From a virus (lineage: Duplodnaviria > Heunggongvirae > Uroviricota > Caudoviricetes), in IMG/VR virus record IMGVR_UViG_2681813166_000002, positions 1 to 36,955 of that record: a stretch of 36,955 bases of DNA; one strand, 5' to 3'. Within the stretch, counting starts at the first letter, position 1; each line of letters opens with the position of its first letter. Made by a program: the position numbers and the translations under genes. Shown one piece after another: positions 1,493 to 10,820 of this stretch. The notes under the pieces were generated by a model. That model was not told where the DNA came from. It made no database searches and worked only from the letters and a program-made list of their open reading frames with translations.

Positions 1493-1699
1493 TTAGTGAT
1501 TCAGGCCGTTACCGCGTCCGTCGAGAAAAACTTCCACGAGCAAATCACGGGTATAAGTGCGCTCGATGCCGCGATGCAGATATAGCCGTCCGCGTAAATT
1601 AGCTGATGCTGTCCAGGTGCCATCTTTGTGCTTAACCAGCATTCCTGGCCGGACGGCACCGCGATTGACGGTCTGTGTGCCGTAATGTTGATGAACCAT
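1493..1699 (-). CDS. Small pL-operon protein in the kil/cIII position, function unassigned
   Basis: 68-aa ORF with AGGAG RBS 5 nt upstream of ATG; sits between pL and gam. Confidence 0.5.
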
Positions 1700-1739
1700 A
1701 AAAACTCCTGCCCGTAAGCTGGGCTGCTGAACATATGAA

Positions 1740-1978
1740 GACTTCTGCGCTTAATCTGGCGGTGGATGGCCGCCGTTAGTCATAACTAAGCCGCCTCGGT
1801 GAAGCGACTGAGGTATGAAGTGTTGAGTTGATTCCAGATGGTCACACCGACGTTCACACGTCCGTTTCACCCCTCGCACTCCCCGGAACCTGCTGAAATT
1901 CAAGCTGCGGATCTAAGCGGTCATCGCAACGGTGAAGCGGGTGAACTGGTGGTTGCCCCATCGCTGTGTCGTTGCGAT
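1740..1978 (-). other. Long GC-rich untranslated leader of the pL transcript with nested inverted repeats
   Basis: No ORF of useful size on the minus strand; stems such as CCATCGC...GCGATGG and ATCGCAAC...GTTGCGAT are visible. Confidence 0.3.
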
Positions 1979-1984
1979 GGAATG

Positions 1985-2060
1985 ATAATAGCTATTGCTA
2001 TTGGCTATATCAATACGTATTGTTATTGCTTGATGCGATTGGTTATTAAATCATTGATAG
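1985..2060 (-). promoter_or_regulatory. Candidate pL promoter and OL operators
   Basis: Minus strand reads TTGATA, 17-bp spacer, TATTAT (plus coordinates 2008-2013 and 1985-1990); motifs ATAGCTATTGCTATTGGCTAT and CGTATTGTTATTGCTTG recur in the OR region. Confidence 0.45.
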
Positions 2061-3067: not shown

Positions 3068-3760
3068 TTATCCATGCTTCCTGTACGTCTGCGGCATGCT
3101 CCCGATGACTTTCCCGAAGATGAACACTCGGTTCATCTCGTCTTTCTCGATCGGGTCCCACGGTGAGTAGCTCTTGTTATCAGAGATAACCAGCAGCTTA
3201 TCCTTCATCATTTGCAGACGTTTTACATGAGCGGTTTCGTCGTAGAGGAACGCATAAATCCCATCGCCGTCGAACGATTTGACGCTGATATCGACGAACA
3301 GCAGGTCACCTGGTTCGATCGTTCCTGACATGCTGTCGCCACGCACGTTAATAATGCGGATGTTTTCTGCTTTGCGGCCATCAAACATGTGACGCGCATC
3401 ATCATGGGAGTACTCAACCGATCGCAAAACTTCAACGAACTCACGGTTAATGACGCCTGGCCCTGCACTTACTTCCATATCAAGAACGTCAATCTTGAAG
3501 TATTTGGAAGAGCAGGTCGCCGGTTTTCCTGGCTGAACGCCATTATCCCTCATAGGGCCTATGCCTGAGGAAAGCCATTCAGTGCGAACCCCAAGTGCAT
3601 TAGCGATTTCGACAATTCTTGTAGATCCGCGTGCATTGCCGCTTGTCAGTCTCCAGATTGTGGGTTGAGCTACACCAGACGCCTTTGCAAGAGCGCCTTG
3701 AGACATTCCAGATTGTTCCATCGCTAGGTTTAAGCGATCAGCAAGAGTTTCTTTTTTCAT
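3068..3760 (-). CDS. cI: CI-type prophage repressor (HTH plus S24 LexA-like peptidase domain)
   Basis: HTH-like N-terminus (QGALAKASGVAQPTIWRL) and C-terminal S24-like segments (GDSMSGTIEPGDLLFVD, VKRL); start set at ATG 3760 (MKKETLADR...); the ORF track extends to a TTG at 3796. Confidence 0.88.
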   Translation of the reverse strand: MKKETLADRLNLAMEQSGMSQGALAKASGVAQPTIWRLTSGNARGSTRIVEIANALGVRTEWLSSGIGPMRDNGVQPGKPATCSSKYFKIDVLDMEVSAGPGVINREFVEVLRSVEYSHDDARHMFDGRKAENIRIINVRGDSMSGTIEPGDLLFVDISVKSFDGDGIYAFLYDETAHVKRLQMMKDKLLVISDNKSYSPWDPIEKDEMNRVFIFGKVIGSMPQTYRKHG

Positions 3761-3870
3761 AAGTTTTAATTTATACGCTTGCGTATCGATGGTCAAAACA
3801 CGTTTTGCTATTGCTATGCTTAATACGCATTGCTATTATTTGTTCATTGCAATACCAATAGGAATTGATA
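3761..3870. promoter_or_regulatory. OR region with divergent pRM (leftward) and pR (rightward) and repeated operator motifs
   Basis: pR: TTGCTA (3811-3816), 17-bp spacer, TATTAT (3834-3839). pRM on minus strand: TTGACC (3791-3796) and TATAAA (3770-3775). Repeated TTGCTATTGCTAT and CATTGCTATTAT motifs; ATTGCAAT palindrome. Confidence 0.55.
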
Positions 3871-4098
3871 ATGACAAATCAAACCATTCAACTCGCAATC
3901 AGTATTACAGGTAGTCAAAAACGACTGGCAGATCTATGCGGTGTAGCCCAACCCACTGTTTGGCGTTGGCTACACGGTGGCGGAATTGATGCCCGCTATG
4001 TAATGAAAATTGTCTCAGCCACTGGTGGAAAGATTAAACCAGCAGATATTCGTCCCGACCTCGCACCATTGTTTAACGCGAGTAATTCTGCCGCCTAA
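3871..4098 (+). CDS. cro: Cro-like HTH regulator
   Basis: 75-aa ORF divergent from cI; HTH-like QKRLADLCGVAQPTVWRW; AGGA RBS 7 nt upstream of ATG 3871. Confidence 0.75.
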   Translation: MTNQTIQLAISITGSQKRLADLCGVAQPTVWRWLHGGGIDARYVMKIVSATGGKIKPADIRPDLAPLFNASNSAA

Positions 4099-4122: not shown

Positions 4123-4668
4123 ATGACTATGCAACCACTTACATACCAACAGACTAGCGGATTTAGCCCGACTGCGGTGATAAATCGTTCTCAAACAAAA
4201 CAAGCTCCAGGCCACGAAAAAATCCGTGATGCCGTCCGCGCCTGGTCGGCTGCAGATAATCAGGATGTTGTTGCCGCACTCATTGTGAATGAGTATCGGG
4301 AGCAGGGCGGCGGCACCATCGATTTCCCTGATGATGTCAGCCGTGCACGCCAGAAGCTGTTCCGCTTCCTCGATAACAAATTCGATTCTGAAAAATACCG
4401 AAATAACGTGCGTGAACTGACCCCGGCAATTCTGGCGGTACTACCGCTGGAATATCGTGGTTACTTGGTTGAGCAGGATAGCTTCATGGCTAGGTTGGCT
4501 GAAATGGAAAAGGAACTCAGTGAGGCAAAACAGGCTGTCATTCTCAACGCACCACGCCACCAGAAACTGAAGGAGATGAGTGAAGGCATTGTGTCGATGT
4601 TTCGTGTGGACCCGGATTTGGCTGGTCCACTGATGGCGATGGTCACCACCATGCTGGGGGCAATATGA
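4123..4668 (+). CDS. Hypothetical protein in the cII position (181 aa), possibly a CII/YdaT-like regulator
   Basis: ORF between cro and O; not recognisable as lambda CII; function inferred from position only. Confidence 0.55.
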   Translation: MTMQPLTYQQTSGFSPTAVINRSQTKQAPGHEKIRDAVRAWSAADNQDVVAALIVNEYREQGGGTIDFPDDVSRARQKLFRFLDNKFDSEKYRNNVRELTPAILAVLPLEYRGYLVEQDSFMARLAEMEKELSEAKQAVILNAPRHQKLKEMSEGIVSMFRVDPDLAGPLMAMVTTMLGAI

Positions 4669-4754
4669 CAGGTTCAGAAATGGCGAAAGCCGGTCTGCGC
4701 GAACAGAACCGACTTTCAGGTGCAAATCGTAACACACTCATTGCGGGAGGAATT

Positions 4755-5684
4755 ATGGCAAACACTGCTGAGATATTCAATTTTCCAGTGCCGGATGAGG
4801 CACAAAAGGAGCGGCGCGTGGCAGATCTCGATGATGGTTATACGCGCATTGCAAATGAGTTGCTGGAAGCTGTAATGCTGGCAGGATTAACACAGCACCA
4901 GCTTCTGGTCTTCCTGGCTGTCATGCGCAAAACATATGGCTTTAATAAAAAACTGGATTGGGTGAGCAACGAGCAACTTTCCGAATTGACCGGGATATTG
5001 CCGCACAAGTGTTCTGCTGCAAAAAGCGTTCTGGTAAAGCGTGGGATTCTTATTCAGAGCGGGCGGAATATCGGCATCAATAATGTGGTCAGTGAATGGT
5101 CAACATTACCCGAATCAGGTAAGAAAAATAAAGTTTACCTGAAAGAGGTAAATTTACCTGAATCAGGTAAGAAAAGTTTACCCAAATCAGGTAAAGGCGT
5201 TTACCCGAATCAGGTAAACACAAAAGACAAACTAACAAAAGACAATATAAAACCTTTTTCGTCCGAGAATTCTGGCGAATCCTCTGACCAACCAGAAAAC
5301 GATCTTCCTGTGGTGAAACCAGATGCTGCAATTCAGAGCGGCAGCAAGTGGGGGACAGCAGAAGACCTGACCGCCGCAGAGTGGATGTTTGACATGGTGA
5401 AGACTATCGCACCATCAGCCAGAAAACCGAATTTTGCTGGGTGGGCTAACGATATCCGCCTGATGCGTGAACGTGACGGACGTAACCACCGCGACATGTG
5501 CGTGCTGTTCCGCTGGGCATGCCAGGACAACTTCTGGTCCGGTAACGTGCTGAGTCCGGCCAAACTCCGCGACAAGTGGACCCAGCTCGAAATCAACCGA
5601 AACAAGCAACAGGCTGGCGTGACAGCCGGCAAACCAAAACTCGACCTGACGAACACTGACTGGATTTACGGGGTGGATTTATGA
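4755..5684 (+). CDS. O: Replication initiator O
   Basis: MANTAEIFNFPVPDEAQKERRVADLDDGY... and a C-terminal half (ENSGESSDQPENDL...TNTDWIYGVDL) matching my recollection of lambda O; GGGAGG RBS; track ORF extends upstream to 4665. Confidence 0.92.
   Translation: MANTAEIFNFPVPDEAQKERRVADLDDGYTRIANELLEAVMLAGLTQHQLLVFLAVMRKTYGFNKKLDWVSNEQLSELTGILPHKCSAAKSVLVKRGILIQSGRNIGINNVVSEWSTLPESGKKNKVYLKEVNLPESGKKSLPKSGKGVYPNQVNTKDKLTKDNIKPFSSENSGESSDQPENDLPVVKPDAAIQSGSKWGTAEDLTAAEWMFDMVKTIAPSARKPNFAGWANDIRLMRERDGRNHRDMCVLFRWACQDNFWSGNVLSPAKLRDKWTQLEINRNKQQAGVTAGKPKLDLTNTDWIYGVDL
5105..5262. repeat. Replication origin: five ~19-bp palindromic iterons followed by an AT-rich tract, inside O
   Basis: ATTACCCGAATCAGGTAAG, TTTACCTGAAAGAGGTAAA, TTTACCTGAATCAGGTAAG, TTTACCCAAATCAGGTAAA, TTTACCCGAATCAGGTAAA, then ACAAAAGACAAACTAACAAAAGACAATATAAAACC. 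Confidence 0.8.
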
Positions 5685-6666: not shown

Positions 6667-6730
6667 GTATGAGCAATTATTGTTACTAATTTTAGTTTTA
6701 CGACATTCGTGATAACTAAATAATTGATGT

Positions 6731-6985
6731 GTGGAACTGAATTATAAAGGGGATGATGTTTTGGGAAATAAAGAAAATATCGATTGTAAGCACACAAGAA
6801 GCTCATGCTATAAAAACAAGCAGATGAAAGATGTTATTTATATTACATTGCCTAAACTCACTGAAGAAGAAGTAGAGATTTTTAAGGGACCAATGCATAA
6901 AGCATTGCTTGCAGGGGTAAATGTTACAAAAAAGGCAGTTTCTGATGCCCTGCTAAACAAAGGGATAAAAGTTGAATTTAAATAG
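6731..6985 (+). CDS. Hypothetical small protein in AT-rich insertion; start uncertain (GTG 6731 or ATG 6824)
   Basis: 84-aa ORF on the track; weak translation signals; convergent with the 472-aa gene. Confidence 0.3.
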   Translation: MELNYKGDDVLGNKENIDCKHTRSSCYKNKQMKDVIYITLPKLTEEEVEIFKGPMHKALLAGVNVTKKAVSDALLNKGIKVEFK

Positions 6986-6996
6986 AGTAATTCAGT

Positions 6997-7028
6997 GGCA
7001 ACAATAGCACTCATTTGTGAGTGCTGTT
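6997..7028. terminator. Hairpin between convergent genes; possible bidirectional terminator
   Basis: AGCACTCA-tttg-TGAGTGCT perfect 8-bp stem with flanking extension; no clear U-tract on either strand. Confidence 0.35.
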
Positions 7029-7036
7029 GAAATTTA

Positions 7037-8455
7037 TTAGAAAATAATGTTTGCTATATCCGAGATAGCATTTAAAGAACCTCTGTGGTCACTTCCTGTT
7101 TTAGGTAAAATATAGGAATATCGAGGGTCTTCATTATATGTTAACTTCCAGTGTTTTCCATCGCTTGACGCACTGAAACCTAAGTCCTTTAAATTTCTTT
7201 GTGTTGCGCTATCCATGCTTCTGTAACCTGTTAAAGTCCTTTTAAGTAATTGGCGGCGACTCTCGGTTTCTTTATTGTATTCATTATTGGCAATTAGGGA
7301 TGATAAGATATGGTAGCTTCTACCAAATTCATTTTTATTTTTTATGGCAGTTTTTAGTGCGTCAATAATTATATTTTTGATTTCTCCATCAAAAAAGTCA
7401 GTCTCTTCACCAGCATTAAGCACAATGCTTCCTTGGGCTGAAGCTTGTGATTGAAGAGTGCGTACTCTGTGCTCTAAAGAGGAGATCTTATGCTTAAGAT
7501 CTTCTATTTGGTCATCTTTCGCAACATTATCGGCTTCGTAAAGCGCCATCAGTTCGCGTGTGTATTCTCCTCTTTCTTTGAGTGAGTTAATAGAGTCTTT
7601 CGTTTTTCTGGTTTGTATCTCACTCCATCCACTATCTGAGACAGGAGCCATTGTAGTCGTAGCTCTTACAACATCATCAAATAACTCATCTTCAAATTCT
7701 TTTGCGGTTTTCTCACCACGGCGATAAAAACTGATATTTTGACCCCGTGGCCAATAGATACCAACAGCACCAGCATAGGCATTTTTAGCATTTGTCTCAT
7801 TTTTTAGCTTAATAGAAAATAGTCTATTGCTAGGCTCAATTAATACATGTGCTAATCCGCATACCTTTCTTGCAAGGCGTTCTGGGATGATATTGTGAGC
7901 ATGTTCATTAAAAAAATACTTGGAGCTAACGTATATTATTGGTAGTCTGTTGTCAGTTTCACCATTTATAACTTTAGCTGCTATATTTAAATGTTCATCA
8001 GTATCATCTAAGGAATGAGGTTCGACTGACACCTTGAAAATATCATCAAGACCACCAGAAAATTTATCAATCAATCTCATAACAACTAATGGTTTCTTAG
8101 GTTGCGGGGCTAGATAAGCTGCATCTTGGCTTACAACGCTAGATTCCACCTGAATCCACATGGTATCAGTTTTGAGATTTTTATTAATTGAAATATCTGT
8201 TACCCATTTGTGTGGCTCAGATATTTTCGAATACCTAAAACAGCCTAAACTAGTATCTTTGTTTTTATAAGTTATTATATCAATTCTTTCATTTTTAGAC
8301 TCTATGAAGTACTCCTCGCTTTTATAATCACATACTAATTGTGCTGGAATAAAAGTTGTATGTGGTGAGTCGTTTACCCAAGAAAAACATTCATTAAAGA
8401 TCTCAGCTAGAGATGTGGAGTTTGAAACATAAAAACCAGTTGAGAAATATTTCAT
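7037..8455 (-). CDS. Hypothetical 472-aa orphan protein, candidate accessory or defence gene
   Basis: Long intact ORF in markedly AT-rich DNA, opposite strand to flanking phage genes; AAGGAAA RBS 7 nt upstream of ATG; no motif I recognise. Confidence 0.75.
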   Translation of the reverse strand: MKYFSTGFYVSNSTSLAEIFNECFSWVNDSPHTTFIPAQLVCDYKSEEYFIESKNERIDIITYKNKDTSLGCFRYSKISEPHKWVTDISINKNLKTDTMWIQVESSVVSQDAAYLAPQPKKPLVVMRLIDKFSGGLDDIFKVSVEPHSLDDTDEHLNIAAKVINGETDNRLPIIYVSSKYFFNEHAHNIIPERLARKVCGLAHVLIEPSNRLFSIKLKNETNAKNAYAGAVGIYWPRGQNISFYRRGEKTAKEFEDELFDDVVRATTTMAPVSDSGWSEIQTRKTKDSINSLKERGEYTRELMALYEADNVAKDDQIEDLKHKISSLEHRVRTLQSQASAQGSIVLNAGEETDFFDGEIKNIIIDALKTAIKNKNEFGRSYHILSSLIANNEYNKETESRRQLLKRTLTGYRSMDSATQRNLKDLGFSASSDGKHWKLTYNEDPRYSYILPKTGSDHRGSLNAISDIANIIF

Positions 8456-8472
8456 GAAATTTCCTTATTAAA

Positions 8473-8490
8473 AATGAGATTAATCTCATT
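8473..8490. promoter_or_regulatory. Perfect 18-bp palindrome in the 5' region of the 472-aa gene; candidate operator
   Basis: AATGAGATTAATCTCATT is its own reverse complement and lies between a promoter-like region and the RBS. Confidence 0.3.
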
Positions 8491-8729
8491 GGCTATGATA
8501 ATTGTTACCCTCCTTTGGATCTAGTGTTCATTTGACATAAGAACCTATTGATTCATCATAATCAACTCGCCATAATCATGTCATCGGAGCCTGAACAACT
8601 CCGGTGACTTCTGCGCTAAACGGGGACGTTTATGCGCACATACAATCCAAACTCTCTTCTCCCTTCACAGATGCAGAGATGCACCTGCGATTTTTTGCAT
8701 CCAGCGTTTGACCTCTGCGGAGGTGAAGC

Positions 8730-9997: not shown

Positions 9998-10134
9998 TGT
10001 TTGAGTCTTATATGGCAGAACGTCTTCGCCACCGCTGGATGCGCCTGCGCTTATATCGTTTCCCCGGTTCTGTTTTGACCGATTACCGAATACTGAGGAA
10101 TTACGCCAAAACACTGAAAGGAGCTGCCGCATGA
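9994..10134 (+). CDS. ylcG: YlcG-like small protein (46 aa)
   Basis: Translated by hand: [46 protein letters not shown]; ATGA overlaps with both neighbours. Confidence 0.6.
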
Positions 10135-10820
10135 ATACCCAATATTTACAGTATGTCCGCGAGCAACTCATGGTGGCTACCGCTGACTTGAGCGGAGCAA
10201 CGAAAGGCCAGCTTGAAGCCTGGCTGGAGCATGCACAATTTGATACTGGTACATACAAACGAAAGAAGCGACGCATTCTGGATGAGGTAACTGGCAAGAT
10301 TATTATGCTGGATAATCCGCCGATTTCCGGTAAACAGTCGTACGCAAAAGGTTCATCTGTCGCCCTGATCAGTCCGGTCGAGTTTTCAACCTCTTCATGG
10401 CGCCGCGCTGTTCTGTCTCTCGATGAGCATCAGAAAGCATGGTTGCTGTGGAGTTACAGTGAAAATATTCGCTGGGAGCATCAGGTTGCCATAACGCAGT
10501 GGGCATGGAGCGAGTTTAAGACTCTGTTGGGTACCAGAAAAATTGCAGGTAAGACACTGGAACGCCTGAAGAAGTTGATCTGGCTGGCGGCACAGGATGT
10601 GAAGAGCGAACTGGCAGGGCGTGAGGCTTATGAATACCAGGAACTGGCGTCACTGGTGGGAGTGACATCAAAAAACTGGTCTGAGACATTCACTGAACGC
10701 TGGGTTGCAATGAAGCACATTTTTCTACAGCTTGATAGCGAAGCTTTATTGCTTCTAACGAGAACACGTTCAAAACAAAAGGCGACATTTTCACAGCAAA
10801 ATATTGCAAAGCTGGATTAA
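10131..10820 (+). CDS. Putative late-gene antiterminator Q-like protein (229 aa)
   Basis: Position between rusA/ylcG and the late promoter/lysis genes; no motif verified. Confidence 0.5.
   Translation: MNTQYLQYVREQLMVATADLSGATKGQLEAWLEHAQFDTGTYKRKKRRILDEVTGKIIMLDNPPISGKQSYAKGSSVALISPVEFSTSSWRRAVLSLDEHQKAWLLWSYSENIRWEHQVAITQWAWSEFKTLLGTRKIAGKTLERLKKLIWLAAQDVKSELAGREAYEYQELASLVGVTSKNWSETFTERWVAMKHIFLQLDSEALLLLTRTRSKQKATFSQQNIAKLD

Follow-up and report, generated by a model that had tools for sequence, protein, structure and literature searches.

A candidate cis-acting antiterminator RNA in the pL leader slot of put and nut sites in lambdoid phages

The untranslated leader of the early-left operon in a lambdoid phage contains a conserved 84-nt element, here named X, that may represent a new sequence class of processive antiterminator RNAs, cis-acting like put; this is our preferred reading, with a probability of about one half. 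It rests on position, conservation and analogy. The initial annotation had suggested RNA-based antitermination in cis, as with put-type elements. The comparative evidence favours this suggestion in its general form; the element involved, however, would be X and not the inverted repeats pointed out at the time, and it falls outside the put family. Somewhat more tentatively, X could be a second polymerase-binding RNA, unrelated to put in sequence, which provides protein-free resistance to terminators and is interchangeable with put and with nut/N, and the neighbouring post-terminator element (PTE) could be an undescribed module marking the start of the delayed-early (post-tL1) region. To our knowledge, put is the only well-characterised phage RNA that reprograms RNA polymerase by itself. 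If the proposal is true, modifying the polymerase by means of RNA is a solution that recurs, put being no isolated case, X offers a natural comparison for nascent-RNA control of elongation, and N-free early-left expression in a very common family of E. coli prophages is explained.

The analysed stretch of DNA, hereafter the window, is 36,955 nucleotides long (IMG/VR record IMGVR_UViG_2681813166_000002, positions 1 to 36,955). It represents a lambdoid (pro)phage with the early-left operon on the minus strand. The list of open reading frames and the family scan place cI at 3068-3760 (minus strand), cro at 3871-4098 and a cII-like gene at 4123-4668 (both plus strand), then O, P and ren, and a Q-like gene at 10131-10820. 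The pL promoter (1985-2013, minus strand) has a -35 box TTGATA (2013-2008), a 17-nt spacer and a -10 box TATTAT (1990-1985), a 10/12 match. It is set within OL operator-like repeats resembling those at pR (3811-3839). The distance from pL to the motif CCATCG does not differ between the window, the OL region of phi80 and HK639, where pL is annotated. Judging by the promoter spacing, transcription would start at about A1978. A strong GC-rich hairpin (AACCCGGCGCGGTGGCCGGGTT, 2161-2182) separates OL from the two minus-strand genes in the rex position (2594-2992 and 2181-2573). Its plus strand carries a T-run and its minus strand TTTTCTT, and it probably terminates the transcript of the cI operon just upstream of pL.

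The leader occupies about 279 nt of the minus strand between the pL start and kil (1699). The initial annotation had described a pL-like promoter followed by about 280 nt with no ORF of useful size, and indeed no credible ORF is present. It had also called this region GC-rich and structured. The GC-richness is modest (54.7% in the leader vs 49.4% in the window). The folding energy of the whole leader is not better than that of shuffled sequences (z = -1.2), and the word "structured" appears to be justified by comparative evidence, not by folding energy. Set against the leaders of 16 GenBank phages and of about 200 loci in IMG/VR (individual loci are numbered L below), the leader looks like a composite of three independently conserved RNA modules, namely a 5'-terminal hairpin, X and PTE.

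X (1836-1919, minus strand) spans approximately positions +60 to +143 of the pL transcript. RNAalifold predicts two adjacent imperfect stem-loop domains. Domain I consists of the helix 1919-1917/1877-1875 and the helix Ha (1910-1901/1892-1883); the domain I loop AAUUUCAG is nearly invariant. Domain II consists of the helix 1874-1869/1842-1836 and the helix Hb (1865-1859/1852-1846). The junction (G)GAATCAACTCAACACTT (1818-1835, minus strand) leads from X to PTE; its homologue in L021, TAATCAAACGACTTT, comes after putL.

The structure and covariance analysis of homologous leaders, which had been recommended in the initial annotation, yields a conserved fold. It comprises 23 pairs, with 97.7% pairing over 15 distinct sequences vs at most 38% in slid-partner controls, and 5 of the pairs show compensatory changes, this covariation being drawn from only about four lineages. 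One position, for instance, has A-U, C-G and G-U, and a second one has A-U, G-U and G-C. One U.G pair is invariant and several further pairs are G.U, which puts the X RNA on the pL-sense strand. The folding energy of X is unremarkable (z = -1.4). On the whole, the structural evidence for X is moderate to good. The X covariance model (R2) scores 128.8 bits at 1934-1822.

The X segment is almost invariant across at least 33 distinct sequences with several immunity types. It is found downstream of pL-type promoters of at least nine operator (immunity) types, in Escherichia phages and in one Scandinavium genome. L120 has a homologue with 82% identity. Further variants came from a pattern scan, from L202 (the Scandinavium genome) and from two additional IMG/VR loci, L351 and L358; L202 was found with a 17-mer scan, the remaining matches of which are almost all chance ones in GC-rich genomes.

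Alignment of the leaders shows X to be a cassette alternating with putL and nutL in a single leader slot. Firstly, HK639 (with its annotated putL), L120 and L256 (X) and phi80 (nutL) have an identical 5' leader, here called scaffold A: the first 57 alignment columns are the same in HK639, L120 and L256, and about 51 in phi80. The 3' flank of about 50 nt is also identical in HK639, L120 and L256, and the leaders of these three differ only in the cassette. The nutL region of phi80 holds the boxA-like sequence TGCTTTTTAACAA. Secondly, in another leader type (scaffold B), L021 has pL, the 5' hairpin, putL, the AATCAA junction and PTE, and the window has the same order with X in the place of putL. 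Thirdly, a scan for scaffold A anchored on the common 5' flank gave 121 loci, 118 of them long enough to be classified; 105 of these sampled leaders contain put, 13 contain X, and none is without a cassette. Finally, four identical 50-nt promoter/operator windows were found with either put or X, and the phi80 promoter occurs with nutL in phi80 itself and with X in L255 and L256. The existence of identical promoters and flanks with put or with X amounts to a natural swap.

Canonical intrinsic terminators, one to three in number, are present between X and kil in all nine X-containing phages outside the window's group for which enough sequence is available, an example being ACCCGCTCCGGCGGGT-T5 in the L120-type phages. 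Their position is that of the terminator located after putL and two genes in HK639 and after gene N in phi80. Searches with the put profile and covariance model found no put in these non-group phages, and the PHROG scan found no N-family member among the genes between X and the terminator in the relatives. These genes vary from phage to phage (HNH, TerB-like, cysteine-rich and acidic small proteins). Directly after X there may be kil, an HNH gene, a TerB-like gene, a cysteine-rich ORF or non-coding sequence, and no gene is conserved in linkage with X. In the window's group X abuts PTE, and there is no terminator between X and kil. In the record identical to the window, traR/xis/int are preceded within the pL operon by the intergenic terminator AGGGAGCTACAGGCTCCTT-TTTTATTATT; in phage 4A7, the same core hairpin is followed by a T-run.

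In the proposed mechanism, X would fold co-transcriptionally into its two adjacent stem-loops as RNA polymerase leaves pL. [quoted passage not shown] No phage-encoded N-like protein would take part. X would do the job of putL in HK022 and HK639, and that of nutL and N in other lambdoid phages.

Several X-containing phages (L251, L202, L257, L252, L255, L258, L262) have, about 60-520 nt downstream of X, a strong Shine-Dalgarno box, a three-codon ORF ATGAAGCACTAA (MKH*) and a GC-rich stretch of about 400 nt with no convincing ORF before the next gene. A non-coding region of about 340 nt is also seen in phi80 between nutL and the gene annotated as N (L009, 2340-2685). Neither the GC-rich stretches nor the phi80 gap match Rfam families. 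These regions could be further structured leader RNAs. The 98-aa product annotated as N in phi80 (L009, 2685-2981) belongs to phrog_25091, a family of unknown function, and has no arginine-rich N-terminus; in L255 and L256, which have phi80 immunity and X in the place of nutL, this gene is replaced by unrelated ones. In loci with neither put nor X, the gene just upstream of PTE was considered as a candidate N and rejected, being variable cargo and uninformative.

The put RNAs (putL and putR of HK022, putL of HK639) are cis-acting, bind the zinc-binding domain of the RNA polymerase beta' subunit and suppress pausing and termination without a phage protein (PMC9378689). A covariance model built from 11 put sequences (R1) scores the known puts at 58-107 bits. 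In the window it finds nothing in the leader, the best match (E = 0.11) being inside cI, and a put profile (nhmmer) finds nothing in the window at E<=1. The window's X lacks the put motifs that are invariant, CGAACGG and CGGCAAU among them. The motifs CGGCAAUGG and CGUCGG, partly common to put and some X subtypes, were rejected as signs of homology, as they are not conserved across X subtypes. On sequence grounds, X is not a member of the put family; since there is no similarity at the level of sequence or covariance model, functional equivalence is not arguable from homology. Rfam, at the gathering threshold, has no match in the window or in ten related loci, and a permissive search of 1400-2250 gave only sub-threshold matches (E>=2.5). 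The HK022 put sites themselves scored nothing, and thus Rfam holds no put model.

The put antiterminators act in cis with RNA polymerase alone and are blocked by mutations in the beta' zinc-binding domain. X resembles them in its slot in the pL leader, with identical flanks in HK639-type scaffolds, in its two adjacent imperfect stem-loops (84 nt in X, about 73 nt in put), in the lack of a linked antiterminator protein and in the strong intrinsic terminators downstream. Of the features characteristic of put, the stem-loops downstream of pL and the downstream terminators are found with X, and the sequence match and the second copy are not. HK022 has a second copy, putR, whereas no second copy of X or of the leader was found in the window, the 4A7 genome or six other loci (blastn-short, nhmmer and R2 with filters off). 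X is single-copy and on the pL side only, as put apparently is in HK639: no putR was found there in the region searched, 29084-46000 (from the early region to just past Q), and therefore a second copy at pR may not be obligatory. We count against the antiterminator reading the missing match to the put covariance model, the small number of lineages (about four), the unremarkable folding energy, the lack of a pR-side copy and the lack of a terminator between X and kil in the window's group.

Searches of the window and of 4A7 gave no antiterminator on the pR side, yet in both phages the pR operon includes terminator-like sites and, ahead of Q, an island in reverse orientation. In the window this is an AT-rich island (6690-8600, between ren and ninB) that the pR transcript must cross on its way to Q. 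It contains a 12-bp hairpin (7002-7029) and a 472-aa minus-strand gene (7037-8455), whose product matches a function-unknown PHROG only weakly and at the C-terminus. An analogous gene in reverse orientation is also present in phage 4A7, where strong terminators occur at 39589 and 41663.

The oop RNA of lambda and the M3 RNA of phi80 are small antisense RNAs encoded beside cII. They are relevant to the pR side only, being neither located in the pL leader nor antiterminators. An "M3-like RNA" is annotated after cII in HK639; it was considered as a pR antiterminator and rejected, as it looks like a small RNA of the oop/M3 type. The window has a matching promoter and hairpin in the same place. The candidate oop/M3-like antisense RNA (4669-4780, minus strand) has a promoter TTGAAT-17-(TG)CATAAT (4780-4752) and a hairpin GTCGGTTCTG/CAGACCGGC (about 4714-4690) with a weak T-run, just after the stop codon of the cII-like gene. 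The PHROG profile of O begins at residue 31 of the longer ORF, and hence the O gene probably starts at ATG 4756 (Shine-Dalgarno GGGAGG) and not at 4665.

The remaining part of the leader (1817-1700, minus strand) is PTE, a conserved structured leader module. Its 5' part (1758-1817) includes CATACC (1817-1812) and TTATGA (1785-1780), a possible closing helix CATA/TATG (1817-1814 with 1784-1781), hairpin 1 formed by AGTCGC/GCGGCT (1809-1804 with 1794-1789) with the loop TTCACCGAG, and hairpin 2, GGCGG-CCATCCA-CCGCC (1774-1758). The 3' part (1700-1757) contains the motif GCGCAGAAGTCTT as well as GTTCAG and closes with hairpin 3, GCCC-agcttac-GGGC (1724-1710), immediately before the Shine-Dalgarno box of kil, AGGAG (1709-1705). 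PTE is a second unannotated RNA element, and its covariation is of the textbook kind. All six pairs of hairpin 1 covary, with as many as five pair types at a position, and pairing reaches 96% vs at most 57.5% in slid controls. The stem of hairpin 3 varies as GCCC/GGGC, GCGC/GCGC and GCC/GGC, as judged from an informal reading of the sequences.

The PTE core of about 60 nt is far more widely conserved than the rest of the leader. It was found in HK225, phi80, HK639, Klebsiella phage KO-TP1, Enterobacter phage ENT1, Salmonella P22-like phages and at least 120 IMG/VR loci. In the relatives PTE almost always starts directly after the U-tract of an intrinsic terminator, and its third hairpin adjoins the Shine-Dalgarno box of the next gene, which may be kil, a cIII-like gene or another one. 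PTE would be a separate module that travels with the kil/recombination module. Its probable role is a post-transcriptional effect, via translation or mRNA processing, on whichever gene comes first downstream. In the window this gene is kil (1493-1699, minus strand; phrog_294, E 5.6e-37), the first gene of the pL operon with a family match, followed on the same strand by gam (1417-1121) and bet (1115-330) in synteny with phage 4A7.

PTE contains a mini-ORF (1751-1783, minus strand; ATG ACT AAC GGC GGC CAT CCA CCG CCA GAT TAA), encoding MTNGGHPPPD*, whose ATG comes after the loop GAGG. The distance from this ATG to hairpin 2 is 6, 4, 3 and 5 nt in 46, 5, 4 and 2 of the 57 distinct variants. The ATG and hairpin 2 were fixed by the search pattern, and their invariance is partly circular. 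The frame is broken in 7 of the 57 variants, and the ORF can be as short as 10 aa or read through into kil. Given the variable spacing, the frame breaks and the erratic length, the 10-aa product was rejected as a conserved peptide; the conserved object is probably the RNA. In L033, L101, L089 and HK639 (L008, 4024-4052) a run of 5-8 T residues follows hairpin 2 after a few nucleotides. This hairpin is annotated as a terminator in HK639, and the T-run is missing in most phages, including the window. PTE may double as a terminator in a subset of phages.

It is unlikely, although quite conceivable, that X is a structured leader serving another purpose, for instance to stabilise or process the mRNA, to control translation, or to bind a small molecule or a host factor. 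The common slot would then reflect nothing but a recombination-prone mosaic joint, and the phage would do without early antitermination. The absence of both a terminator between pL and kil-gam-bet-exo in the window's group and a pR-side copy of X agrees with such a function. Moreover, lambdoid leaders are mosaic, and PTE demonstrates that conserved structured leader modules of this sort exist here. On the other hand, a put or X cassette is present in every one of the 118 scaffolds sampled, the X-containing phages outside the group have strong terminators between X and kil or the recombination genes and no other known way through them, and those occupants of the slot that are understood from experiments are all antitermination signals.

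It is rather improbable that X is a nut-like site recruiting a trans-acting antiterminator, either an unrecognised phage protein or the host Nus complex, as rrn boxA does. The nutL of phi80 fills the same slot, and the promoter and 5' leader of phi80 are unchanged when X is present. In addition, the near-invariant CGCTTAGA at the start of X, with a hairpin after it, has a faint resemblance to boxA. However, CGCTTAGA differs from the lambda boxA CGCTCTTA at 3 of 8 positions, and the hairpin after it, with 9 predicted pairs and an 8-nt loop, is unlike the 5-bp boxB. Reading the leader sequence revealed no boxA (CGCTCTTA or TGCTCTTTAACA) followed by a short boxB hairpin. X measures 84 nt and has two long stem-loops, several times the size of a nut site and far beyond boxA-boxB. 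Rho-dependent termination is the main target of rrn-type Nus complexes, but the terminators downstream of X are intrinsic.

No protein partner for such a site was found either, and no conserved gene is linked to X. The PHROG scan found no N-family protein among the 38 ORFs of the window, none is annotated in the complete genome of phage 4A7, and none was seen among the genes beside X in the relatives. The statement of the initial annotation that no N-like gene occupies the lambda N position is thus correct, no ORF between pL and kil having a family match, and the possibility it had named as a refutation, that N is encoded elsewhere, gives a negative result within the window and in 4A7.

The initial annotation had also noticed mutually exclusive inverted repeats, from which it derived the possibility of a terminator/antiterminator switch. 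The repeats are real and involve the 5'-terminal stem-loop of the pL transcript (1923-1980, minus strand), for which there are two competing pairings. In the local pairing, CCATCGC (1980-1974) pairs with GCGATGG (1964-1958). In the other one, ATCGCAAC (1978-1971) pairs with GTTGCGAT (1930-1923), and this helix extends to 10 bp as CATCGCAACG/CGTTGCGATG (1979-1970 with 1932-1923). Both pairings use one common 5' arm and are therefore mutually exclusive. The leader contains more perfect 7-mer inverted repeats than expected by chance, five vs 0.84 +/- 1.2 in dinucleotide shuffles, a number attained in only 15 of 1000 shuffles.

The local hairpin, ATCGC-N9-GCGAT, is at an equal distance from the -10 box in phi80, HK639, L120 and L202, and it covaries between ATCGA/TCGAT and ATCGC/GCGAT among phi80, HK639 and L120. 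The long helix CATCGCAACG/CGTTGCGATG is specific to the window's group; it is kept in the 4A7 group, with A-U replaced by G.U. An attenuator in which these exclusive repeats switch a terminator is nevertheless very improbable: there is no hairpin with a U-tract on the sense strand in 1980-1700 for either pairing, the repeats are at the extreme 5' end, the local hairpin is only weak (3-4 bp) in 4A7-type relatives, and the long helix is absent from L120- and L202-type leaders.

Thus the repeats form only a 5'-terminal hairpin and not a switch. This hairpin probably protects the 5' end of the transcript. Stem-loops at the 5' terminus stabilise bacterial mRNAs, e.g. in the 5' UTR of ompA. Like the stabilising stem-loops of the ompA type, the hairpin begins within a few nucleotides of the presumed +1 and is conserved with covariation; unlike them, in the window's group it competes with a second, longer helix, and the stabilising role is only inferred.

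The last explanation suggested initially, a decayed remnant of a deleted N gene with no function, is suggested by the location at the lambda N position and by a 50-aa TTG-initiated ORF with an arginine-rich N-terminus (RFRGVRGVKR), but hardly any weight can be given to it, as the X region is near-invariant in at least 33 distinct sequences, occurs downstream of promoters of at least nine immunity types and has compensatory changes, L120, a diverged homologue, has stops in all frames, and the leader has no similarity to the genes at the same position in other phages. That ORF (1903-1751) and a 35-aa one starting with ATG (1961-1854) are the only two on the sense strand of the leader. Neither has a family match in the PHROG scan. 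The ATG of the 35-aa ORF is missing in the relatives, where indels of 5 nt and 1 nt occur, and frame-breaking indels are present in the leaders of L072, L112 and L080. Given the lack of family matches, the non-conserved starts and these indels, both ORFs were rejected as real genes.

The 113-nt X region is present at 90% or higher identity in 2210 of 5426 complete E. coli genomes (about 40%), and it is unannotated in all 25 matches listed. In the one chromosomal context considered, it belongs to a lambdoid prophage with ybcK, emrE, ren, P, O, a cII-like gene, cro and cI on one side of X, and kil, gam, bet, exo and further genes up to int on the other. From the gene set of this one context, the X-bearing E. 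coli prophage would be DLP12-like. Full-text literature searches with the X and PTE sequences retrieved nothing; an earlier description of X may nevertheless exist. The record identical to the window over this 113-nt region (100% at positions 1822-1934) is NZ_AP023208.1 (L266), deposited as a 70-kb "plasmid", pMTY18781-3. This record has tRNA-Thr and proA beside a phage integrase and looks like an excised or mis-assembled prophage with a chromosomal flank.
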